Assembly: GCA_049999805.1 (NCBI GenBank)
Contig: JBNGIO010006161.1
Coordinates: 62,001-126,000 of the forward strand
Source of the DNA: Folioceros fuciformis
Taxonomy: Eukaryota
Reading direction: 5' to 3'
Length of the DNA stretch: 64,000 nt
The notes beneath the pieces were generated by a model. That model was not told the DNA's origin. It worked only from the letters and a program-made list of their open reading frames with translations, and searched no databases. This document shows, one piece after another, positions 43,940 to 64,000 of this stretch. How positions within the stretch are numbered: position 1 is the stretch's first letter; every line of letters starts with the position of its first letter. Position numbers and translations under genes: made by a program.

Positions 43940-46900
43940 CTAGTTTTGATCTATCATGCCCTGCAACTGAGCAACAATGGAAAAGCGATGGGCATATCCG
44001 GACCCGTAATGAGAAATCAAGATTTCTTTCACGATATCTAAGCTCTCTTTAGCACATTTTGTGTCTGTGAGAGCCAATGCGATTGAAACAAGCTTGAGTC
44101 GCTCACTGGCAAGAGTTATATGTGAGCAATTGTAAAGGAGCTCCAAAATCTGCAAAAAGCTCAAAAGACCATTAATCCTGAACTTCAACTGTAATACGGC
44201 ACATAGTCTAGCAAGATTTTGTGAACTGGGTTTGAAAAGTAGGCTTTTCGATTTGGAAGATTTTATACCTTGATGGAAGCTAGACAATGAGGCATGGCAG
44301 CTCCAGGATTGCCCATCACACAGTACGATTTTGCTAAAATGTCGTGTGCCTGGAGGTAATGCAGGTTGGCATCAGAATGTTGCATGAATTTCACTCCAGT
44401 GAGAGGGGAGAGAGAACCCGGAGGGAAATGGACAACCACATCGGACTCACCTTTGCAAGTTGTTTGTTGCAAGGATGTACGAGGACCTGTAGCTGTTTTA
44501 AAGATTCCAGAGCACTTTGCTCATGAACTGCAAATTCTGCTTGTTCCAAATTGGTATCCAGTAGTTTCTCCAATCTGCTCACACGGAAGTGATGCCAGTA
44601 CAGGATGTAGTAGTTGCCACTGAGGGAAGAGACTACAGTGGGTACGGGAGAGAGCAAACCTGAGAACCACTTGGAAGTGTTTCCTTGCCAGACCGTAAAT
44701 CCTATTTCGGTCCACCAGTAACGTGCAACTGAGGCATCGAAATGGATGGTCATTCCATTCCGAACCCACGTCATCAACATCAGGGCCAATAACTACTCCA
44801 GAGCATCCAGGTTTGGGGCACAGCACAGCATTAATGACTGTGTCGGAAAAATTTGAGGTAGAGCAAGCTATGCAAGTACAAGTGAAGGAGTAGCGCTCCT
44901 TCAGCCACTTTTGTCTCGTTGATCTCGTCATTTCACCCACCTGCTAGACCAGCCACTGCATTAGGATCCCATCTATCTGCCATACATCTGTGTGACATAT
45001 TTCAAGAATTCAGGCATTGCTCCACACCTGTGCCCCATAACAAATTTCCAGCTCAGTAAATGCTCGGATGCTCTTAGTGGCGTGGATGAAGAGACAGCAC
45101 GAAGTGAAAGAGGCGTGACAATTGGGATCACAGGAATGGTTCAGCATGCTTCCCTTGAGATAAACTGCCTGGGCTATATTGTTCTGTATCACACACACAC
45201 ACACATAAGACACTCGAATAGGAAACAAGTTCTCAAAGATGAGATGGGAGCCGTTACCTGGTCAACAGTGCAAACGGCACTCCTGGCTGCATCCACATCG
45301 CTGCTGGTCGATGTGACTTCATTGATGGCTATCGAGTTGGCTCGCAGTTGAGCCATTATCAGGATAAGCTAGAAACGATTTTAACTGTACGTCAGTAGCA
45401 AGATTTCTAGCGTGAGGACTGATGATCTAAACGTCCCCACACTTTGCTCAGTTGTTACGACTTACTTCAACGGATATGTCTGCTGTGGTGCCTGTGATCA
45501 TGCGAGACGAGGGGCAGTGTTGCAAACAATGAGCAAGAACCGTAGACAGTACGTGCATCTCCAATTTCTCTGAAGAGAGCACTTTATCGAATTGATGGCA
45601 CAAGTTTCTTGGCTGCAGACAATCAACCACACAAAACTGTTAAGTCACATCGACGCCCAAGCTGCAGCTCGGTGAGAAGGGGGATGAAATAGTGATGCAC
45701 CTATCTGCAACAAGAAACCTATATCCAGGGACTTATTGAGTTAGCTGAATATGAGACACCTCTGGCATATGCTGCCTTGCTGCTTTCCACTCTCAAGGCT
45801 TGCCTATCTGTTCCACCCTGCACATCCGTAGGCTGCACATAATCTAAATGCCGTGACCTCATATAAACTCTGGCAGCCAATACAGCTTCAATAGGCAGCA
45901 CTGCAGCCCAGCTTGCACCTCCACATTCATGCCTGTGTTGACCATAACGTGCTTTCTTGATTGCAACTTCAACTCTGTGAGCAGTCTTTTCTGACAAGGG
46001 TTCGTCAATACTACAGGAGCCACTTGAGAGGCAAGAATCCCCTTGGATCCTGGCAGTCCAATTGCTATTGGTTGCATAATCTATGTCTTCCTCTGTCCAA
46101 GAGGTCCCCGCTGCACTGTCACGGCATGTCTCAGAACAGTACACACTGACAGTGCAGCCGTCACATGCCACTTCACCTACTGGCAACTTCTCGAAGCAGA
46201 AGTGACAATAAGTGTCCCGATGCAATTTCAGCAGCACCTGCAGATGATGCTGAGTGGATCAGATAAATCGTGAATTGGCTTGCAGGACAATTCGTTCCCT
46301 GGAAAGCCTAGAGACTTACAGCAGCATAAGGGTCTTCCGTCACAATCAAGCTTCCAGGAATAAGGTCTTCTGTAGTCCTCAGACCAACACCTCTGTCTGC
46401 TGTCCACATCGTTTCTGCAAGGCTGGGACAGACTTGGCGGATTTCTCTGGCATCTGTTTAGAGCAAGAGTCAGTGGCTATCAAATAACCTCAACCTAGAT
46501 CATTGATGCTGCAAAACTTGTGATGTAGAAACTCTACCCACAAACCTGCACCACTCTTCATGCCGAGCAGAGCTTCTCCACATGTCTGGTGCCTTTTCTG
46601 AAGCGATTTAAGCTGTTTCTCAGCTTGTTTCCTGCCACCGATTGAGCTCTCTAGGGCCAAGGCCTTTTCCATGTCAGAGATCGCCTCTTGGATCCTTCCT
46701 TGCTCTGACCTGACCAGGCTTCTCCTGTACCAAGCCTTCACACAGCCATTGAAACTCATTTATGACAATTGATCAACAGATTTGCCTCCCATATAGTCAC
46801 CAGCTGTGCCGACAATACACTGTTTTTTCAGACATTTCGAAATGGACGACCGATACCTTGGAGTACGAGGCCCAAAGCTTAACAGCACGACTGCAGTCCC

Positions 46901-47950: not shown

Positions 47951-50900
47951 ATGCTGCCCTTTCATGAAACCATTGTTGCTGACCTGGTGGAGAACGATGG
48001 GGTTGTGGTGCTTGCAGTGGGCCTGGGGCTGCCCAAAATTCTGTCAGCGCTTGTCCGCCTTCACTCAGCTGCAGATGGCATCCTGCTCCTGCTCTCCATC
48101 TCCGACTCTCAGAAACAATTTATGCGAGAGGAACTGCAAGAAAGTGATCCTGCTTCCGCTCTTCCCCTGGAAATCAACAATGAGTACACAGCAGCAGATA
48201 GATGTAACTGCTATTCCGATGGAGGAGCATTTTTCATCACATCCAGGATTCTGATTGTGGACATGCTGAATGACCGAGTTCCTTTGCAGAGAGTTGCAGG
48301 AATCATTGTGGGAAATGCCCACCGGCTGACAGAGACATGTGCAGAAGCTTTCATAGTCAGGCTCTTCAGACATGCCAACAAGAAGGGGTACATCAGAGCC
48401 TTCTCAGACAGGCCGCAGTCCATGATATCAGGATTTTCAAAGACAGAGCGGGTGATGAAAAGCTTATTTGTGAAAAAACTGCACCTGTGGCCAAGGTTCC
48501 AGCTCTCTGTGAGCTCAGTGTTGGAAGCAAGCCCTCCGGAAGTGATTGATATTAGGATACCGCAGTCATCTACCATGGCTGGCATTCAGCATGCTATCTT
48601 GGAAGTTATGGATGCTTGCTTGAAGGAATTGAGAAAAAGCAATAAGGTGGACGTTGAGGATCTTACAGTTGAAAATGGACTGTTCAAGTCATTCGACGAG
48701 ATTATACGGTATCAGCTGGATCCCATATGGCACACCATTGGCAGGAAGACAAAACAACTTGTGGGAGACTTGAAGACTCTTAGGAAGCTGGCTGAGGCTC
48801 TCCTACGTTACGATGCTGTCACTTTCCTCAAGTACCTGGATACTCTGAGGGTGTCTGAAGGCGTGAGGTCAGTTTGGATGTTTGCGAATCCCACGCACAA
48901 GATCTTTGATTTAGCTAAACGGCGAGTGTATCAGCTGGTACGAACAGACAGTAACAATGTTGTTCCCACTGCAAAGTTGTCCAAGAAGCGAAAGGGCAAT
49001 AATGGTAGTGCCATCCGTGTACCAGGACGGGGAGTAGGACCAGCCACCACCTCGGAGAAAGTGAATGCTGCTGGAGCCCCAGGGGAGAATGCCCAACCAG
49101 CGGAGGCACCAGGAGTTGTACTTGAGCTTGCTGTGGAGGAGATGCCCAAGTGGAAGGTTCTACGGGTGGGTTTCTTTGTGTGCATTGTGTTGATACAGGT
49201 CTGTTTCTTATGAGTGCCCAGGTCAGGTTGCCAATTTGCATGTGTTGTCGATACAGGAAGTATTGGAAGAAATTCAGGAAGAGCGTCTGGGAGGAGGGGA
49301 GGACTCAGGAGTCGTTGTTGCTTGCAAGGATGAGCGCACTTGCCTGCAATTACAGGACTTGGTCCGTCTTGGTGGTGAACGGGTACGCAGATGTAACAGC
49401 CTTGTGCCATGTGTGTCTGTATGTTCTGGATGAGACCTTAACATACTTTGAATTCCTCTGTGCAGCTAATGAAGGAACAGTGGAATAAGTATTTGCTAGG
49501 AAAAGCAGAGCTACATGGAGTGCAAACGCGCAACAGGAAGCGACATCGGGGGAAAGGAGGGAGCAGCTACGGAGGAGGAGGCTCAGAGGTCACAGGAAGT
49601 GTACACCGAGAAGAACATGAGGCTTTGCTGGCTGCTGCTGCAGAGGTTGCAGCGGTAGATAATAATGCGCACGCTTTGGGAGACGACGAGTTTTGTGAAG
49701 CTGTGCGAGGGAGGGGCAAGCCTAAAGGCAGCGGTCGAGGTACAAACAGAGGTAGAAGCAGAGGTCGTGGGAGAGGCAATTCAAGTAGACGGGGAAGGGG
49801 AAAGACAGAGAAGGGGAAGGTGGAGGTGGAGGTGATCGAAATGGAGAAAGGGGACACTGACAATGACAATGACTTCATGGAAACTGTTTCAAGAAAGGAA
49901 GAGCTGGCAAACTCAAGGGACGTCCCTGCAGAGGAATGCACAGTAGAACAGCTACCGCCGCAAGCTGACGGTCAGATTCCACAAGACAAGCCCATCCCTC
50001 CTGCTCACTTCTATGCATTAGAGAGTGAGCAGCGAGTGCTGCAGATTATACGGCCACGGTATGTGGTAGTCTTTGATCCAGACATGGGATTTGTGCGAGA
50101 GTTGGAAGTGTACCAAGCGGAGAACCCTTCAAGTCCTTTGAAAGTGTACTTCTTGTTCTATGAAGATTCAACTGAAGTACGCAAGTTTGAGGCTGGCATA
50201 GCAAAGGAGAACAGTGCCTTTGAGTCTCTTATCAGGCAGAAGGGGACAATGATGATACCCGTGGATCAGGTACCTTGTCTGAGATCCTTTTACCTGTCAT
50301 CGCATCGTAAACTCGAGATAGTGTTTCCTGACCCCTCTGCTTCGTGACAGGACGGTCGGACACTGGATGTCACTCCACCAACGCAATCTGCAACAGGAGT
50401 GTTCCAAAATCCCGTTACGCGCAAGGCTGGAGGGCGAAAGTCCATTGACAGGCAAAAACAGGTTAATTAGCCAGAGTTTGGTATCAGCATGGCAAACCAT
50501 GCTTTGCTTTCTTGATGTCAGCTGGTCTGATAAGTTTCCTTTGCAGGTTGTGGTGGACATGCGAGAATTTGGAAGCAGCCTCCCTTGCGTGTTACACCAA
50601 CAAGGTATGAAAATACTGCCAGTGACACTGGAGGTTGGTGACTACATTTTGACGCCAGAGATCTGTATCGAGCGCAAAAGCATCTCAGACCTTTATTCAA
50701 GCTTTGCATCGGGGCGACTCTATAACCAAGCTGAAACAATGATTCGCTACTATCAGATCCCTGTGCTTCTCATAGAATTTTCACAAGACAAGAGCTTTTC
50801 GCTGCAGGTATCCTCATCATCATCTCTTCCCTTGGCTCAGAAGCAGCTCCGCATCCCTTGCTGCTTAGTCTTTGATCATATGTGTTGTGTCTTTGCTAAG

Positions 50901-51414
50901 CAGTCCGCGAATGAGGTCGGCGAGGAAGTAACACCAGCTAACGTTATCTCCAAGATATCCCTATTGGTGCTTCATTTTCCTCGATTGCGGATTATCTGGT
51001 CCAGGAGTTTACATGCGACAGCAGACATCTTCACCTCTTTAAAGCACAACCAAGATGAACCGGATCTGGAGAAAGCAATGCGGGTGGGAGTGCCCACCGA
51101 AGATGGCCTTGTAGAAGGGGATCAAAGGTAGATCACGGACCCCAAGGCCTACTGTGCCTCTTAAGTCAGGCCTTTTCTTTGACGCTTCTGCTGTTTCGTG
51201 CTTCAGAGCAGAGAACTACAACACGACAGCGATTGAGCTTCTTCGGAGATTGCCAGGTGTGACTGATGCAAATTACAGAGCATTGATGGATGGCTGTAAA
51301 AGTCTCGCGGAGCTCGTCCTCCTTCCAGTGGAGAAACTGGCAGAACTGATGGGCGGCCAACGTCAGGCTCAGATTCTGTACGAATTTTTGCATGCTAAAT
51401 GCCCAACTTTGTAG
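47951..51414 (+). CDS. UVH1: DNA repair endonuclease XPF/ERCC4 (UVH1/RAD1), multi-exon
   Basis: ITSRILIVDML, LHLWPRF, QLDPIWH, EEMPKWKVL, VVVDMREF, GDYIL...IERKSISDL (ERKxxxD nuclease motif) and an HhH tail. Confidence 0.96.
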
Positions 51415-54102: not shown

Positions 54103-57100
54103 TCATGACCACACCCCACGGTATTCCTTGAATGTATGTGGAATAGGAGACCAAATTGCAACCTCGCCTTCGGTCACCGTTCGTAGCCGGGGCTTCCATA
54201 ACCTGCACCTATTCCTGCGGAAGGCCGGCAGCTTTGGTAGTTGATACGCAGTATTTTGCTTGCTATCACCTGCAAGTTTTTTCCTGTTGTGCCTACCGCC
54301 GGCGCCCGCATTTTCATCTTCGTTCAGTATGGGGGTCTCGCCGCCATCCGTGGACGTCGGGGTCGGTACAACAGCATCGCTCACCACTGTCGCGGATGAT
54401 TCAATTGTCTTGACGACAGACACCTCTGTTGAAACGCGAACAACCTCTGGTTCCCGAGCTGGAGAGCGCATTTTCAAATGATCTCGAAGCTTCAGACGAG
54501 GGGGCCTGCCTGGTGACCTCTGTGTCGGCCTCTCCAACTCAACCACAGGAGTGTTGCTGGCCTCACAATCAATTTTTCTTGCTGGCAACGACTTTCCCCA
54601 GGACCCTTCAAGACTAATGACGGGGGCTTGACCCATGTTGTAGCCCCACTGAGCTCGGGCTATGCCATTGCTCATGCATGTGGCCAACTCCGGTTTCAGT
54701 CTTCTCCGCTCCAGACAAGCTTGCTCCTCCGGGAGCAGAAAGGGATCCAAACGTATCTCAAACAAATCTGGTGAGCATTCCACAGGCACTCTTGAGATAC
54801 AGTTCTCCAAACTCATCTTAACTTCCTGTTTCCGCTTCTCAGGGGACCACACATCCAACGGTTCGAACAAATACTGCTGGTTATCCTCAAGGATCAGGTC
54901 CTGTAGAGATTTGCTCTCACGGACAGGCTCAACAACAAGGTCCTGCAGTGTTTTGAAATCACGAACAGGCTCGAAGATGTAGTCCTGCAGTCTTTTACCA
55001 TCACGGGTAGGCCATGCTGAGAAACCACGGTGAGCTTTCCAAGTTGGCAAAGAAAGCTCAAAACTACAGTCTCGTTGAACGTCCTGTTCATGCACACCAT
55101 CTCCGTGCGTACGGTCCCTGCCTAGCCCATGGGTCTGTTGATTCACTGCTGGGGACATGAAATAACCAGGAAACCGCTCCTCTGGCAATGGTGCCACGCT
55201 ACTCTCTAACCTGGAAGATGCATCGTCCATAACAGAATCCAGTAAGCTATCGCTTGACGGTCGGGTCAACGAAGTCACCTTCACAGAATCCACCCTTGTA
55301 GTAATCGCCTGCGGACTTAGCGGTGGAACACCAAACTTGCCTGACATCAAGATCTGTGAATTTTGCGAGAGCGTCTCAAACAACTCGATCTTTGATCTTA
55401 CAAAAGATGAGTAATGAAAGAGATCCTCGTCAAACCCATAATTCCCAAGCGGGCTTGAGCCTTGGCCAGTTACGCCTGCCGTGTTGGTGGGCCCATGCAA
55501 TGCATCACCCTGTACCAGATAGTTTTGCTCACTGCTTTCCCATCCGTTCTCTTCTTGCAGCCATTGCTCCATCTCCTCATCTCCAGACACACGTAAGCCA
55601 TCCTTCACCTCGTTGATAGATACTGTTACCCCCTTCGTCACCTACAACAAACAAGGCCACGGCATTAGCTCACCACGGCGACTGGACGGACCATAGTTCT
55701 TCTACTCCTCGCTACAGCTTCCCATCGGCCAATTCGAGAGTTGAGAAGCTTCCTCAGACACAACTAGGCATATCGTCATAACAAGCTCAGCAGAAGCATG
55801 GTGAAGATTCTCGTCGGACGTTGGGCCAATGTCATGGACAAGGAAACAGCCGCCAGAGGTGGCGAAGGAGGGAGAGGGGAGACGGACAATGAGCGACTCT
55901 AGCCAATTCGTACTAGTCTGCTCAGAAATTGGAACAGTTTATCTTCACCAGTCTCCGAAGAACTCCGATCCGCTATAACGAAAGAATATTTGGAGTCATC
56001 ACTGCAGACGGACACTAGTTGCCGTTGATCAGGCTCTCGAAAGACAACAAGAACTCAGTGCGAATCCGCTGACTTCCACAGGACTTCTCCTTAACTTTAG
56101 CTAGATAGACCAGCGGTGCGTAGATTGAAAATAGGAACAACATCCGCCAAACCTGTTCGTTAGCACGTGCATTCTTGAAAGCCTGCGCATAGCAACATTC
56201 CAGTCTCGCAGATTGCGGATTCCCGTCTCTCCCACGCACGGATACTTGGCCGACACAGCCCACTCCCGACATCTGCAAAGGATCTCCCCCTTCACACGTC
56301 TGGCCTTGGCAATCACCGACCGGATACACCTTGCTCATAAAAGAGCCTTTAGAACCAGCCACTCCCGGCGACGGAAGCTCTGCACACTGACATACCATGC
56401 CACGCTCGTCGTCAACGGACTGTTCATCCCTCGACACCTCAACTCCTGTCTCCACCTCCATATCAAGCTGACACCTTCGAACACATATCCCTGTAGTCTT
56501 ACCTCCACAAGAAGCACGCTGCTACTCTGATCCGCAGGTGCGCTGCTTTCCCTCCCTCCCTTCCCCGGGAACTCTTTCTTCCTACCATCCGGACGGCCAC
56601 AGCCAGCGAGCTTCCCTCCAACTTTCGGCGACGGTCTCCTCCTCGCAACAACGGCCTCATCCACCCGCCCCCGCTGCTTCCCCTGCAACCGGCTGCTGCG
56701 GCTCGGAGTCCTCCCTCCCGCGCCCCGTCGAGGTGAGTATCGGAGCCTCGGACTCCCCCGAACCTTGGGACTCCCAACACAAGAAGCTCTCGCCTTGTGC
56801 CATTTCGGAACAGCGGCCTCCCGCTTCCCGTCCCTCTCCTTCCCAGCCGCTCCCGCGCCAGATCTCGCACCTTTCCCAGCCCCAGCCACAGCCACAGCCA
56901 AGGCACCGGGCCTGCACTCCCGCATAGCCTTGGGGCACACCGATTCCGATACCGACTCATCCGCAGCGCTGCTCTTCACCCTACTCCTCTTCGTCAGCAT
57001 CGGGGGAACCCCCATCCCGTACTTCCGCCGCAAGCTCGCCACCGTCCGATAAGGCAACAGCAGCACCTTCCGCCCCGGCATCAACAGCACCTCAGGAGCA

Positions 57101-57279
57101 AGGACGGCGGGCTTGCTGGACTGAAAGATATCCGGCAAAGCCACAAAATGGCGAGGATTCCGCCTCATCACCTCATCCACCGTCACGGTGTGGTAGTACC
57201 GCTCTACACGCCCTCCTCGATGCACGACTTTCACCGCCGGCGGCAAGGTGGCCGCGGACCTGGATCCACTCTGTCCCAT
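54103..57279 (-). CDS. PADRE/DUF4228 protein with a long disordered insert; apparent frame break near 56500; intron about 55642-56151
   Basis: MGQSGS, VKVVHRGGRVERYYHTVTVDEVMRRNPRHFV...LMPGRKVLLLP at the N-terminus and WKPRLRTVTE near the C-terminus. The NEQ|VTK junction is a phase-0 splice. Confidence 0.6.
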
Positions 57280-58265
57280 TCCTCTTGCTCGTCCCTGCCT
57301 CCTCCTCCTCCTCAGGCAACCATGCCCGGGCTTCCGCTTCTCCTTTTGCTACTGCTCCTCGCAGCCAGCGGTGGCATCTGCCTGGTGCGGACCCGGCCTG
57401 GGAGTGAGGATCCAAGGAGAAGAGGAGGCAGGAAGGCGTCCGCCTCCTCCCGCTCCTCCTCGCACGCATCACCGCTTCCCGCTGGCAGCTCCGGCCGCGC
57501 TAGGGACGGTGGCCACCGCGGGCCATGGCCATATTCCATGTGCGTGGCAGGGCTTGTCGGGATGTCCCGCCCTCACAGCCAGCGCCTCGCATCTCCCGAT
57601 GCCTTTGAACTCTTCTCCCCGTGGCCCCGACACAGCCATCTCCCCCTTGTTTGGCCGTTTCCACGCATCGGCCTTGGGCCACGAGCTCGGCCACTGGTGG
57701 GCCTGCCAACCAGAAGTCTCCAGCCTCTGATAATCCCCGATATCCTTTGTACAGGCCTGTAGATATTTTTATGGTTCCATATCCTGCCCACCTCATCACC
57801 AGAAGCACGCAAGCGCAAGCCTCCCACAACCAAATTGTCATGAACGACTAGACTTTAATAAGGGTTTTAAACCTTTTGCTCAAAAGGATTTTGTCGGAAC
57901 CTCGCACCCTGGGTGGTGAGGGTATGGGTCCGACTCCTCCCCCCTCCATACACTCCTGACTATGAGTAATAGATGTACAAATTTTTATTTTCTAAGCAAA
58001 GGCCCACAGATATGGGTGTGGGCAGGTTTGGGAGGGAGGGAGACCTGGGTGCTTTGCTGTTCGGTCTGCAGACTGCTGACATTCCACAGGGGTGGGACTC
58101 TTGGGTAGTGAAGAACGGGTGCCTTAATGAACCAGTTAACGTTGGCTGTGTTGGCACGTTATGTTACCAAACTGGATGGCAACAGGATGACAGTTGCAAT
58201 AAGCTTTACACATAAGTATGCACAGGTCTTCAACAATACAACACCTGCCTCTCCCAAGTGCATCC

Positions 58266-61020
58266 TTATTGCCCTTGAATACGACAGAGAGAGCAGCCGA
58301 GGCATGACTCTTCGCCATTTGGGGCATGCTCGATCAGCAAAGGGCAGTGCTTAGGGCCTTTACATTTAATAATTCCCTGCTTCAGATCGATACCTCTCTC
58401 TCTCGTACGGTGACAAGCGTTACAAAAGTGAGTGGTTCCATAGCAAAAAAAAGTAGCCACGGAACAGCAATACCTGCACTTGTACTCCATATAATCAGTG
58501 CCATGGTTTGCTACCTTACATTTCCCCTTGCCAACAAGGGCAGCAGAACAGCCGCCACACATAAGCTCGCTTGGATTATAACCGCTTCCCCTGCACAGTC
58601 AGACACCATCAGCACAAACTTGCCAGCAAGTTCAGAATATCTTGAACCCATCCAAAGAAACTCATGTGCTTTGCTCAGCACATACCGTTCGTTTCTCGCT
58701 CTGCAGTCGCGCATACCACCAAAATACGGTTCCTTACACTTGTAGCAGACGTAATACTGGTAATTCTTCATGGCATCAGTGACCGACTTCTCGGCTCCTT
58801 CTGCGCTCGCCTTGCCTGCCCTCGATTGCTCTGCCTTCAACTTTAAAAGCTTTGATGAAGCTTTGCTCTTGCGCCGCCCTTCTTCCGTTCGCTCAAGCCT
58901 GAGCCTCTCTCCTAACTTTTGACTGACCTGCACAGCCATATGTCTGAAGCTCAGGATCTCTTTGCATCATGTGACCAGGTATTTGCTTCACCGAGAACGT
59001 GAACAGGAACATCCGGGATAACAAGCCCCACCTGCAATCTTAGTTGCTCATGCTTCCACGAGTGAGGCTGCAAACTTGGATGTTCCATGGCTTGTGAACA
59101 TTGTGGACACTCAAGGAAACCGAAGCTGATTTCGGGGCCTGGAAACCCCTCATCAATCTTCCTCTTTGCACATTGTGAGTGCACCACATGTCCACAGGTC
59201 AGGAGTATGGCAGGTGCTCGCCTAATAGGATCCACCATACATACAGCACACAAGTCGTCCCCAGATGTCAAGACCTTCTGACCAGCACATGGATTTGAGT
59301 GACAGCCATCCTGTTGAAGGTCGGAAAAATACGTCCCATCAGGTGTCGGACATGCAAAAGAGTGTACAAAAGAGTCGTGGATCCGCATACTCACCTCTAG
59401 ACAGGGAAGGCAGGTACGTTCTGCTCGAACTCCTCCACAGCGATGCCCACATTCCAATATCCGAGAGCATGAAAGCTTCAGCATCTTCCGACAGTCTTTT
59501 CCAGAGCAAACAGCAGAAGCAATATTCTGCACCTTCACTAGTTCTGTCTTCTCCACGCACCAGGCAATATCCACGTCACTCCTTTCCAGCTCGTCCCTAA
59601 GGTGTTTAACAGACATGGACTCCAGCTTACGGATTCTCAGACTCTCAGAACTAGAAGAACGAACAATTCCCTCACAAAAGATGCACTTCACAGCTGACAT
59701 CTCCTCCTCATACTGCTCACAGGTCTTCCCCTCGTGGTAGGGCTTTCTTAAACATTTGCCACAAAAATCAACTGTGCACATAGGGCAACGAAACCGATTT
59801 ACAGCCTTGTGACGCAAGGCAACTTTAGAAAGGTGAATCCCACCGTTGTCTGGAGCCTGAGTTTGAGGCAACTCGCCAGCAACCTTCTCTATAAAGATTC
59901 CACATCCTGGGCAGTGTACAAAAGAGGTACTCCGGTCCAGAAATTCTCTACTGGCCTTGTCCTCCCATTTCCCGAAAGCCTCAGGAGCTACACTCTGTGC
60001 GTCTAAGAGGTTCAAACTACCACCACAGCCAGGAGTGGGGCATGTTATCCATTCGAAGGCAGCAGAGCTGGAAGATGCTTCTGCATGTTGTCCATTGGCA
60101 CCAGAAGCTGTAGCTCCAGATCGTGAAGATTGGTTGGAATCACTTCCGCAAGCGCTTTCCAGAGTGGCAACAATATGTTGCCGTAAACAAGGAACACAGC
60201 AGAGACACGTACAACTCAGCGTGGCGCCAATCAAAGCGATCGATAAACTCTGGCGACAATGATCACATGTAAATTCTGCATCCGCCATCTCTTCATCCGA
60301 TAGATAGACGACTTCCGGAAGCTTGTCACCATCCTGCAAAGTGATGACTTCCGGAAGCTTTTCATCATCCTGCAAAGTGATGACTTCCGGAAGCTTGTCA
60401 TCATCCTGCAAAGCGATGCCTTCCGGAAGGTTTTCACGACGTTGAGATGATTCTGGAAGCCCTCCATCATGCAGAGATGATTCCGGAAGCTCTCCATCAC
60501 GTGAAGGTCTTCCCCCCACCTCGTCCTTCGCATTCGCAAGCTCTTCATTACGTAAGAGTATGACCCCCGCTTCCGCCTGACCGTAATGACGCTTACGATT
60601 CACGCCCACTGCGCCTGCGGAATCTGAAGGTGGTGAATCGACTCGGTCCGGATGCAAACGTACATCCTTCCAGCCCGAAGACGGCATGCGCAAGGTGGAG
60701 AGAGAGCTCTGTGTGGCGCATTCCCTATCAGGCCGACTGCAGAGAGACCCCATCTCACACCCGGTATAAGAATCCACTTCACCTACCCCTTCTGCATTTG
60801 AAGACAGTCTACCTGTGTCAGAGGAACAGGAGCCAAAGCTCGTACCCCCGGCCCTGGGAGGGGCATCAGCTAAAAAGAACCCGGTGGCAGTGTCTCCATC
60901 CTCATCCTCGTACTCATCCCTCACAAACGTCAGCTGCGAACGTACGCTCTTCTTGTAGACCTCACTCGGATGCTGCAATTGTTGAACTACAGCTTCACCT
61001 TGAAGGTAAAGCCAGTCCAT
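58266..61020 (-). CDS. RING-IBR plus MYCBP2-type RING-Cys-Relay (RCR) E3 ubiquitin ligase, at least 4 exons
   Basis: CGHRCGGV...CLPCL, RING CAVC..APAILLTCGHVVHSQC..GPEISFGFLECPQC, YYVCYKCKEPYFGGMRDC, YNPSELMCGGC, HGTDYMEYKCRYCCSVATFFCYGTTHFCNACH, CPL..HAPNGEE.CLGCSLCR, all collinear with the MYCBP2/Highwire/RPM-1 C-terminus. Extra 5' exons are possible. Confidence 0.88.
60290..60500 (-). repeat. Coding tandem repeats (30-36 bp units) encoding LPEVITLQDDEK-type motifs
   Basis: LPESSLHDGG, LPESSQRREN, LPEGIALQDDDK, LPEVITLQDDEK, LPEVITLQDGDK, LPEVVYLSDEE. Confidence 0.85.
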
Positions 61021-61799
61021 GAGATCCACAACAAACGAATAGCATGTTCAAAATACAGTGTCTTCCCTTTGACCTCTTCCACTCAAACAGATGCTGCTTT
61101 CCATACTCTCCCTAAGCTACTAGGTTTCCCGCTAACACGGCCATAAACGGAAGTTCCCTACTCCAGCTTCCTGCAGGTTCGGGTTCTTGCTGGTGCTTGC
61201 CTGCTCGAATTATCGTAAACTTTCGGCTCCGTGATGCTCTTCGCATACTGGTGACCAAATGCAGCTAACCTCCACTCCAATCCCCGAATTCGGCTCCCAA
61301 GCTCAACAATTCCAAGCCCTAGATGCCGCTATTACACATTCTCGGCCAGTTGACACAACATAAGAAAACTGAAGTGATCCTCCTCATGAGATGCAATCAG
61401 CGAAAATGGCAACATGCAAGACAGGCGGGCTGAGGCTACTGCATCGCCACAGTAGGAGAAGGAGGATTCTACATACGTCCGCTGAGGACGGATTTTCCCG
61501 TCATGTCGACTTGGTACCTGGTTCACATCGTCGCGCCTACTAATTCGGAGGGTGGTTCCCAAGCGTGGGATAAGACCGCGTCAGTCGGTCTAAAAACTCC
61601 TCCTACCAATTTGAAGTGCGTTTCCGGGCGGTACTTAGGGCCGCAACACATGTACTGGAAAAATCTTCCTGTCCTGTAACAAGCGAAAATGAGCGGCTAC
61701 GGCATCTTCCATCGTCTCTCACGATCCAAGTTCGTCTCAACGGGAATTCACCCAGGCAACTCTAATTTGTGCGTCTCTTGAAAAGAACAACAGTGAGGG

Positions 61800-62465: not shown

Positions 62466-64000
62466 TCACATAGACTTCTGTTCTTGTCTTTGCATACGGC
62501 AGAGAGAACAACCAAGGCATGCCTCCTGGCCATTTGGGGCATGGACCAAGCCCAAGGGACAAGAATCAGGGCCTGGACAACTCCTCATATACGTCTTGGG
62601 ATCCATGCACTTTTCTCTAAGAAGGTGACAATCACTACAGTAATGGACAGCTCCACGGCAAAAACGAGTAGCCACGGAGCAGCAATACCTGCACTTGAAT
62701 TCGATGTAATCAGTTCCATGGCCTTTTACCCTGCATCGGTCATGGCCGGTTGCTGCAGCAAAGCAGTGGGTACACTTGAGCTCGCGCAGATCATAATCGG
62801 CCCCCCTGCACAGTCAAAGTTGAATAGTACCAGTGCAAGCTCTCAAACGACTTCACCACCAGAAGATCTGAATCAAACAAGAAGAGAGACCTGCAAGCAA
62901 ACAAAGTACGTACCCTTCGTCTACCGCCCTGCAGTTCCGAACACCACCAAAATATGGCTTTGCGCACTGAGAGCACAAGTAATGATGATACGTCTTCATG
63001 ACATCAGTCACCAACTCCTCGCCTATTTCTACCTGAAGGCCGTTGTCATCCGACTTTCCTCGCTTCCCCTTCGTCATGAACTCCATCGTGAGCTGCTCCT
63101 TTACCATCTCCTTGATCTGAACAGCCAAACGTTTCAAACTGAGCTCTCCGTGCATGACAGATGAACGAGTATTGCCAATCCCCAAGAGCGAGGCATGCAT
63201 GCGCGTCTGGAAATACCCGCCCTCGCAGCGTCTCGTGTCCCTTCACAAAAGGTTCCAACGCGGGATGCCTCATGACTTGCAGACAGACCGGACAGTCGAG
63301 GAAACCGAAACTGATTTCGGGGCCCGGATATCCCAGTTTTATCTTCAGCTTCGAACAATGGAAGTGCACGATATGCCCGCAAGCCAGCAGTATAGCAGGT
63401 GCTTGCCTGACGGGATTCAGCATACATATCGCACAGAGCTCGTCCCCGGACGTGAAGAACTTCTGCGCCGCGCACGGATCTGAGAAGCGACAGCCATCCT
63501 ATGAGGAAGGAAAGCTGTCAGATACAGTTGTCCGCCATACCTACCTACCACAGCACTGCACTGCACTGTACTGCACTGCACTTTGGCAACGCAAAAAATC
63601 GTCACCCGGGTTACCGCAATCAAATCACCTCTAGACAAGGCAGGCAGGAACGCTCCCCGCGAACTCCTCGGCATCGATGCCCGCATCCCAAATTCCGTGC
63701 ACATGTCAGCTTCAACAGCTCCCTGCACTCCGATTCCGAGCACACAGCCGCAGCAAGATTCAGAACCTGCAAAAAGTCCCTCCTTTGCCCACACCAGGAG
63801 ATATCCATGCCGATAGTCAAAAGCTTGCGCTTAAGCTCCCACAGCGACATGGCTTCCAATTCTTTCAGCCTCTGACTCTCAGCACGGGAAGAACGAACAA
63901 TTAGCTCACAGAAGAGGCACTTGATGTCTGATATCTCCTCTGGGAGCCTGTCAGATCTAGGCTCACACTCGGGCTGCTCGCCAATTCCCCCGACACCGTC
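62466..64000 (-). CDS. Second RCR-type E3 ligase paralog; 5' end lies beyond the window
   Basis: Same exon layout and motifs: CLFC, CGHRCRGV, CAIC..APAILLACGHIVHFHC, YFGGVRNC, YDLRELKCTHC, KCRYCCSVATRFCRGAVHYCSDCH, HAPNGQEACLGCSLCR. Confidence 0.85.

Follow-up and report, generated by a model that had tools for sequence, protein, structure and literature searches.

The RING-between-RING (RBR) and the RING-Cys-relay (RCR) enzymes are two classes of ubiquitin ligases (E3s) that form a thioester with ubiquitin. Can the front part of the one class and the catalytic unit of the other belong to a single enzyme? This question is raised by a gene, here called gene 1, in a stretch of DNA from Folioceros fuciformis that is 64,000 nucleotides (nt) long (GenBank assembly GCA_049999805.1, contig JBNGIO010006161.1, positions 62,001 to 126,000 of the forward strand) and is referred to throughout as the window; all coordinates are positions in it. 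Gene 1 lies on the minus strand at 58266..61020, and its product of 823 amino acids (aa) is probably an RCR ubiquitin ligase that carries an RBR-type RING1-IBR ahead of the relay unit. From the N-terminus to the C-terminus, the order of its domains is: acidic motif, repeats resembling SUMO-interacting motifs (SIMs), RING1, helix, IBR, CxxC knuckle, SAP-like insert, zinc finger, MYCBP2-type RING, helical linker, and tandem-cysteine (TC) domain.

The relay mechanism of MYCBP2 is described in PMC9527308 and PMC13015453. Passages of both articles present MYCBP2 as the first and only named RCR ligase; they describe it as “the single member” of its group and as the one RCR ligase in humans, and they list no InterPro signature for the class. 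A full-text literature search returned reviews and studies on humans and animals; judged by titles and the openings of abstracts, none dealt with an RCR enzyme outside animals or with a RING1-IBR-RCR protein, and remarks on these may stand in Pao et al. 2018, in Mabbitt et al. 2020 or in supplements. The proteins described here show that mosses, lycophytes, green algae and many other eukaryotes also have the relay engine, in small proteins in which the E2-docking half of an RBR ligase is attached to it. If true, these proteins would provide compact, expressible enzymes (about 650-820 aa) for the study of cysteine relay and of non-lysine ubiquitination, the first candidate in the plant lineage for ester-forming ubiquitination by an RCR enzyme, and a concrete structural link between the two classes of thioester-forming E3 ligases.

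Gene structure and transcript

The cysteine motifs from which a preliminary description of this locus had set out are real, and all of them lie in a single open reading frame (ORF) on the minus strand (58951-61047, 698 aa). Intron 1 is in frame, so this raw ORF reads through it, and the protein is carried on past the ORF by the frames 58511-58966 and 58266-58598. On the basis of homologues and of GT..AG splice sites, the coding region (58266..61020, minus strand) comprises four exons: 61020-59395, 59310-59032, 58927-58686 and 58590-58266 (stop codon included). The three introns between them, of 84, 104 and 95 nt, are all of the GT..AG type. The start methionine (MDWLYLQGE...) matches the start of homologue P0001 and adjoins the first residues of the other homologues. 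The preliminary description had placed its hybrid region at 59700-60270; these positions do bracket RING1 and IBR, but the CIFC motif and the helical segment that it counted in lie just below 59700.

A public contig of 2183 nt covers 58200-58589, 58685-58925, 59030-59309 and 59394-60359 and holds no other letters. Its gaps are 95, 104 and 84 nt long and have CT..AC ends on the plus strand, i.e., GT..AG on the strand of the gene; they equal the three predicted introns, within the ambiguity of 1-2 nt in the mapping. This spliced contig starts outside the coding region, on the far side of the stop codon, and reaches 60359, so that it includes the first RING1 cysteine (60265-60267). A second public contig covers 60367-61100, and the break between the two lies inside a 36-nt tandem repeat. 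The gene 1 stretch was found in one public run (X1), in which 0.86 of the sampled words occurred.

RING1, IBR and the RCR RING share one exon-level reading frame. Because of this shared exon and frame, and because the spliced contig runs through to the TC exons and skips exactly three introns on its way to 60359, the RING1-IBR and the RCR exons are on one spliced mRNA, as the preliminary description had supposed. That the fusion could instead be an artefact of annotation or assembly, arising from neighbouring genes read through or from a pseudogene, is hardly credible. The in-frame intron 1, as a result of which the long ORF partly translates an intron, would suit such an explanation; however, the common frame of the three zinc domains, the spliced contig that joins RING1-IBR to the TC exons, the moss, lycophyte and green-algal homologues (from transcripts and from genomes) that share the domain order, and a tandem paralogue with the same intron positions all speak against it.

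The two halves of the protein and what lies between them

The C-terminal half corresponds to the RCR module of MYCBP2. The MYCBP2-type RING (C563-C613; 59098..59250, minus strand) lies directly upstream of the TC domain and matches PDB chain 5o6c_A with E 5.4e-14 (query residues 595-659 against chain residues 8-72). The TC domain (aa 693-823; 58269..58756, minus strand) spans intron 3 (58591-58685): exon 4 matches 6t7f_A with E 7.9e-28 (chain residues 147-256), and exon 3 matches 5o6c_A with E 3.5e-5 (chain residues 120-146). Pfam lacks a family for this domain, and a Pfam scan of the two exons gave no match for either. The profile of the family to which gene 1 belongs covers, with its positions 308-555, residues 5-261 of the 263 of 5o6c_A (E 8.1e-101).

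Both cysteines of the relay are present. The upstream one, that of the mediator loop, is Cys710 (codon 58703..58705, minus strand; context FGGMRDC), which aligns with residue 143 of 5o6c_A; the downstream one is Cys765 (codon 58443..58445, minus strand; context FFCYGTTHFC), which aligns with residue 193 of 6t7f_A. We take these to be C4520 and C4572 of human MYCBP2, and the neighbouring histidine to be H4583, on the assumption that the 5o6c_A construct comprises human residues 4378-4640, which would make C4520 and C4572 chain residues 143 and 195. The histidine of gene 1, His776, is aligned within the match of exon 4 to 6t7f_A. Among the 75 members in alignment A3, the upstream cysteine is found in all 75 and the downstream one in 67 (with seven gaps and one Asn); beside the second relay site there is a His in 64/75 and a Glu or Asp in 64/75, most of the other rows at the histidine being gaps.

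Thus far, gene 1 resembles the RCR modules of MYCBP2/PHR1/Highwire/RPM-1 (5O6C, 6T7F): the RING, the helical linker and the TC domain are the same, as are the two cysteines of the relay and, next to its second site, the His and the Glu. The CxxC and the zinc finger before the RING are shared as well, being present in fragments of animal orthologues. The remainder is different. Human MYCBP2 has about 4,600 aa, whereas the gene 1 product is small, with 823 aa. It has a RING1-IBR before the unit, where a MYCBP2 orthologue fragment (P0018) has a DOC domain (Pfam PF03256) ahead of the zinc module, and its clade adds the SAP-like insert and the SIM-like repeats.

In RBR ligases, RING1-IBR docks the thioester of ubiquitin with the ubiquitin-conjugating enzyme (E2~ubiquitin) in the open, thioester-transfer state, and it also binds activating ubiquitin. 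In gene 1, RING1 (C252-C332; 60025..60267, minus strand), which was assigned from fold and family-profile matches, has the eight zinc ligands and the fold of an RBR RING1. Its pattern is C-x2-C-x15-C-x-C-x2-C-x2-C-[insert]-C-x4-C, in which ligand 4 is Cys in place of His, and in which the Ser/Ala-rich, disordered insert (60049-60159) lies between ligands 6 and 7. The IBR domain (C370-C434; 59719..59913, minus strand) has the pattern C-x2-C ... C-x2-C-x4-C-x2-C-x5-H-x4-C and matches Pfam IBR PF01485 above its cut-off of 24.3 (E 3.2e-8, 34 bits, ORF residues 360-443). The IBR of gene 1 is without part of an insert that is conserved in its relatives between the two IBR halves (59800-59870, minus strand; consensus LP.GVA.SGVPELDRTAPF.ELD, columns 417-438 of alignment A1).

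The family profile (positions ~22-167) matches the RING1-IBR of solved RBR ligases, i.e., HOIL-1 (1.6e-9), ARIH2 (1.4e-8), RNF216 (1.8e-7), 1wim (1.9e-7), HOIP (7e-6) and RNF144A (1.2e-5). An AlphaFold2 model of a 306-aa segment of exon 1, from RING1 through the zinc finger, was made with a 103-row alignment; its mean predicted local distance difference test score (pLDDT) is 90.4, its predicted template modelling score (pTM) is 0.72, and the one part with a pLDDT under 50 is the Ser/Ala insert (residues 65-77). Foldseek gave 15 matches in the PDB with E <= 0.001: the 13 that are listed are all RBR ligases (HOIP, HOIL-1, HHARI, ARIH2, RNF216), and the remaining two are further chains of listed entries. 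In structural alignments, residues 11-207 of the model correspond to ARIH2 134-279 (Z 9.0, 142 aa), RNF216 512-646 (Z 9.0, 128 aa), HOIL-1L 277-420 (Z 8.4) and HOIP 697-850, while parkin 233-378 (Z ~7) is aligned with residues 11-199; these matches span RING1 through IBR and nothing beyond. RING1 by itself matches 1wim (Z 9.7, 91 aa) and HOIP RING1 in 7v8f (Z 7.9), and IBR by itself matches 2ct7 (Z 5.7, root-mean-square deviation (rmsd) 2.1) and RNF216 in 7m4m (Z 5.5, rmsd 1.7). In a scan of 48,161 representative chains that is independent of Foldseek, rows 1-14 are all RBR ligases. The ESM Atlas returned RBR-type clusters only, with scores of 0.81-0.84 that are below its trust level. One candidate was rejected: MYT1 (E 0.0095), the best PDB match of the RING1-IBR searched as a single sequence, is a chance match to CPTPGC.

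The RING1-like and IBR-like character that had been read from the cysteines is thus upheld by profile as well as by predicted structure: the Pfam IBR match is above its cut-off, the family profile aligns with solved RBR ligases, and the fold searches rank RBR ligases first (the fold of ARIH2, HOIL-1L and parkin). In comparison with the RBR ligases (HOIL-1/RBCK1, ARIH2, RNF216, HOIP/RNF31, RNF144A, parkin, HHARI), gene 1 agrees in the order and the fold of RING1, connecting helix and IBR, but is without RING2/Rcat and hence without the RBR catalytic cysteine. The Pfam IBR model finds one stretch only in the gene 1 ORF, and since no RING2/Rcat with a catalytic cysteine was found, gene 1 is not classed as an RBR ligase. 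The preliminary description had seen correctly that no RING2 follows and that an RCR module does, as the single IBR stretch and the matches of the RCR RING and the TC domain confirm. It had gone on to propose two transthiolating E3 classes in one chain. The fusion of a RING1-IBR to an RCR unit holds; however, because only the non-catalytic half of an RBR ligase is present, there is one transthiolating engine, not two.

What, then, stands between the IBR and the RCR RING? The sequence K-C-I-F-C begins about 11 residues past the last IBR cysteine. Its CIFC knuckle (C446/C449; 59674..59685, minus strand) is the first pair of a zinc module ahead of the RCR RING; its conservation is >= 90% in alignment A2 (103 rows), and in alignment A3 (75 rows) it does not vary at all. 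The module ends in a Cys-rich zinc finger (aa 505-545; 59302..59508, minus strand), which spans intron 1 (59311-59394) and has the pattern C-x4-C-x7-C-x5-C-x-H-x-C-x9-C-x2-C-x3-C (with x8 for x9 here), its last Cys being beyond the intron. This finger is nearly invariant in the family. Custom hidden Markov models (HMMs), which were run on 167 family proteins and the gene 1 model (168 sequences), find it in 146/168, including animal MYCBP2-like proteins. Fragments of animal MYCBP2 orthologues (P0015, P0016, P0018) have CRFC, 15-16 residues, VCSDPDC or variants, and CGHLCGGIKNEESCLPC or variants, directly before the RING. Because these fragments carry the same arrangement, the CxxC and the zinc finger are judged, from sequence comparison, to belong to the RCR unit. 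Thus, the view of CIFC as a part of the IBR or as a gene-specific relic has to be abandoned: it is the first knuckle of a module that MYCBP2 orthologue fragments have as well, and the zinc module before the MYCBP2 RING is a conserved part of the RCR unit.

In MYCBP2 itself, the CRFC knuckle and the CGHxCGG...CLPC finger upstream of the RING look like an unstudied part of the RCR unit. From the limits of the 5O6C construct, the module presumably lies outside the crystallised RCR fragment.

Alternatively, the zinc module (CxxC ... CGHxC ... CLPC) could be a diverged RING2/Rcat, in which case the protein would be a true RBR ligase with an RCR tail and a third catalytic cysteine. Like a RING2, the module opens with K-C-x-F-C shortly after the IBR, and many alignments of the family search stop near query 214-222, at the knuckle. 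However, the spacer from the CxxC to the next Cys pair varies from ~11 to >100 residues across the family and has no conserved Cys or His, which argues against a catalytic centre of the Rcat type. Moreover, the Pfam IBR model, which usually matches RING2 too, matches one stretch only, and fragments of animal MYCBP2 orthologues, which lack a RING1-IBR, carry the same module before their RING. A diverged RING2 therefore appears very unlikely, and a decayed RING2 from KCIFC on is rejected because of the variable spacer and of the same module in the MYCBP2 orthologue fragments. In the fold lists, the post-IBR part has no RING2/Rcat chain among its matches, an absence that carries no weight by itself. 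Modelled alone (104 aa, pLDDT 90.2), the post-IBR part had no Foldseek match with E <= 0.001 (best 1y02, CARP2, E 0.95), and a wide VIA scan gave no Z >= 5 (best Z 4.4, for PARP-1 zinc-binding domain 3 and T4 endonuclease VII); a new fold is not claimed.

Within the zinc module, between the CxxC knuckle and the remainder, lies a SAP-like helix-turn-helix insert (aa 469-504, MSVKHL...ASAV; 59509..59616, minus strand), which the custom HMM finds in 36/167 family proteins. A resemblance to SAP and helix-extended-helix motifs had been noticed earlier. It receives weak support from fold matches to SAP/LEM/Rho-N domains (Z 2.8-4.5 over 40-63 aa, rmsd 1.4-6.2; such Z values are common), among them the CDNF SAP 9i5y (Z 4.4-4.5, rmsd 1.4, 42 aa), but the match to Pfam SAP_RNF34_RFFL (E 0.01, 15.9 bits) is below the cut-off of 27. 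With the SAP of RNF34/RFFL (CARP) and the helix-extended-helix of SAP/LEM/Rho-N domains the insert has in common the two-helix motif and the signature “SVK.L...L......WC.EK.EL”, with all scores under thresholds; unlike the motif of RNF34/RFFL, that of gene 1 interrupts a zinc module, and some members of the family do not have it.

A family of RING1-IBR-RCR proteins

A word-indexed search found 13 relatives, including full-length ones from the moss Ceratodon purpureus, the lycophyte Diphasiastrum, and the green algae Cymbomonas and Closterium. Further members, from Selaginella, Mesostigma and Sphagnum, came from a profile search. The named members are mosses, lycophytes and green algae (streptophytes and Cymbomonas), and homologues derived from transcripts and from genomes of these groups have an identical domain order. 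An exhaustive HMMER search with the 306-aa segment gave 556 cluster representatives with E <= 0.001; the number is 174 with a threshold of 1e-10 and 7 with one of 1e-30. By these searches, the family is old and large and not a one-off, and with this the idea of a local splice in gene 1 falls away. In databases, its members are named “hypothetical”, “RING-type domain-containing” or “MYCBP2”.

In the 168 sequences, the custom HMMs detected the TC domain in 102 and the RCR RING in 121. IBR, zinc finger and TC occur together in 94/167 proteins, and the commonest domain string, found in 62 proteins, is IBR-zinc finger-RING-TC. Among the 95 sequences with IBR, zinc finger and TC (gene 1 included), a strict C3(H/C)C4 RING1 precedes the IBR in 60; in 13 others the part upstream is too short, and 22 lack a strict match. 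Ligand 4 of these RING1s is Cys in 13/60, which are green-lineage members, and His in 47/60, which are most of the others. In a Pfam scan of 75 of the 94 members, those of <=780 aa, zf-RING_2 was found in 63/75.

The relay unit has also been joined to another partner. Three bivalve proteins (P0017, P0019, P0020), named “MYCBP2-like” or “RCR-type E3 ubiquitin transferase”, have a Macro domain (PF01661) with zinc finger, RING and TC. As in gene 1, the zinc finger-RING-TC unit has come to lie in a small protein, behind another N-terminal part than in MYCBP2, but this part is Macro instead of RING1-IBR, and the CxxC knuckle is not present.

Routes of ubiquitin, targeting motifs and neighbouring genes

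How would ubiquitin pass through such a protein? By homology to MYCBP2, the E2~ubiquitin thioester would dock on the RCR RING, and ubiquitin would then move to the TC domain, first to Cys710 in its mobile loop and from there to Cys765, from which it would leave for the substrate. The acceptor is probably a Ser or Thr hydroxyl, as in MYCBP2, because His776 and Glu724 are conserved. Because there is no RING2, RING1-IBR would not be a catalytic centre; with less assurance, it can be seen as probably a second platform for docking or activating the same relay, and recruitment to SUMO-modified targets may be the role of the repeated SIM-like motifs. As an accessory to the relay, RING1-IBR could serve as a second entry point or as an activating switch, or it could inhibit.

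The two RINGs can be compared at the position that contacts the E2. In the RCR RING this is Ile in 78/95 proteins; in RING1, where it follows the first Cys pair, it is Leu, Val or Ile in 40/60. Because of this better conserved contact, and because gene 1 has a His at the position in RING1, the RCR RING is rated as the main entry for the E2, as judged from these alignments.

Several points weigh against an RBR-type front end that serves a relay. The Pfam RING models have no match to the gene 1 RING1 in a single-sequence scan, and the RING1-IBR as a single sequence, compared with the PDB, finds no solved RBR ligase with significance (HOIP at E 2.1 and 2.6); because of this, the assignment of RING1 rests on the family profile and the predicted fold. 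In the family, Pfam IBR reaches E <= 0.001 in only 28/75 members of the scan. The His at the E2 contact of the gene 1 RING1 is the only one among 60 RING1s. The catalytic steps of RING1-IBR-RCR proteins rest on homology, and, because MYCBP2 works without a RING1-IBR, this part may be dispensable for catalysis. With regard to the transcript, run X1, the source of the spliced contig, is labelled RNA by a guess only; we take it to be RNA because its contig has no introns. Finally, the reading of the motifs as SIMs depends on a general SIM consensus and on 9/77 members; in these nine a motif of this type lies <=40 aa before RING1, against 1 in 36,976 aa elsewhere in the 77 proteins.

Two other assignments of the E2 have to be considered. 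In the first, RING1-IBR binds no E2, all E2 traffic passes through the RCR RING, and RING1-IBR is a regulatory module that binds ubiquitin or a ubiquitin-like protein, or is autoinhibitory. RBR ligases have an allosteric ubiquitin site at the RING1-IBR junction, and the best structural matches of gene 1 include HOIL-1L with linear ubiquitin (7yui, Z 8.4) and parkin with phospho-ubiquitin. This assignment would also suit the far stronger conservation of the E2 contact in the RCR RING, the His in the gene 1 RING1, and the fact that the RING1 HMM of the family finds only 28/167 proteins. However, most members keep a complete RING1 with eight ligands and a hydrophobic contact residue, and RING1 matches the HOIP RING1 in complex with the E2 UBE2L3 (7v8f, Z 7.9). 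On balance, a RING1-IBR that binds no E2 seems somewhat doubtful, although worth keeping in mind.

In the second, RING1-IBR is the main entry and presents E2~ubiquitin in the open state directly to Cys710, which would take the place of RING2, the RCR RING being secondary or structural. Here the position is suggestive, in that RING1-IBR sits where an RBR ligase would go on into RING2 (the CxxC knuckle follows after about 11 residues), and the 306-aa model is confident as one body. We consider this quite improbable, since the RCR RING and its E2-contact Ile are better conserved and since MYCBP2, according to PMC9527308, uses its own RING for this step.

Beyond the preferred reading, in which the RCR RING is the main entry and RING1-IBR an accessory, a broader proposal can be made. 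Perhaps the combination of RING1-IBR, zinc module, RING and TC is the ancestral form of RCR ligases, from which animal MYCBP2 lost RING1-IBR; RING1-IBR and the RCR RING would be two entry points for E2~ubiquitin, or one entry point and one switch activated by ubiquitin, that feed a single relay of two cysteines; and the tandem SIMs of the green lineage would make a SUMO-targeted ligase that ubiquitinates hydroxyls. As a whole this is speculative and rather unlikely; if true, it would link the RBR and RCR classes by mechanism and by descent.

The SIM-like motifs of gene 1 number four (EGIALQDDD, EVITLQDDE, EVITLQDGD, EVVYLSDEE) and are arranged in tandem at aa 198-244 (60289..60429, minus strand), and are produced by a 36-nt tandem repeat for which Tandem Repeats Finder gives 60310-60437, a period of 36, 3.6 copies and 91% matches. 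Relatives in the green lineage have a single SIM-like motif before RING1, e.g. ILVLSDDE, FVVLSDDDD or YIELSDDDD. Tandem motifs with a hydrophobic core and acidic or Ser-containing tails before the ligase domains are also a feature of SUMO-targeted ligases such as RNF4, the likeness to SIMs in gene 1 being a match to a motif consensus; unlike gene 1, whose engine is an RCR, RNF4 is a dimeric RING, and the two have no sequence homology. In six of the 77 members, by a visual count (P0038, P0097, P0118, P0122, P0133, P0161), a helix “DE(E/D)(F/L)AR.L(Q/M/A)”, which resembles a ubiquitin-interacting motif, precedes RING1, and there is no SIM-like motif. Going by such motifs, different clades may use different targeting motifs.

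Closer to the N-terminus is a conserved acidic motif, FVRDEYEDEDGDTATGFFLADAPP (aa 32-55; 60856..60927, minus strand). In alignment A1 it is aligned with “GE.EDEDGD.AT.F..AD.P” in 9/13 homologues (P0001-P0004, P0006-P0010), from the green lineage and others; the region is missing in P0005, P0011 and P0013, and P0012 has no match.

The tandem paralogue, gene 2 (62466..64000, minus strand), is cut by the end of the window; its exons are 64000-63629, 63498-63217, 63116-62914 and 62805-62466, and its introns, of 130, 100 and 108 nt, are at the same positions as those of gene 1. The part in the window comprises the second half of the IBR, a CLFC knuckle, the SAP-like insert, the zinc finger, the RING and the TC domain, and is identical to gene 1 at 203/376 aligned residues (54%). 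Gene 2 has both relay cysteines, with RFCRGAVHYC at the second site where gene 1 has FFCYGTTHFC. A (CACTG)n microsatellite of 6.8 copies lies within its intron 1 (63549-63582).

Directly downstream of gene 1 is a GC-rich ORF of 337 aa (56335-57348, minus strand) with a PADRE domain (PF14009, E 4.3e-18), a family that is specific to plants; its presence agrees with the window being of streptophyte origin. Elsewhere in the window there are a weak match to a MYND finger, under its cut-off (45719-46258, minus strand), and an ORF that encodes a nuclease domain of the ERCC4 type (PF02732, E 1.4e-26; 50322-51131, plus strand).

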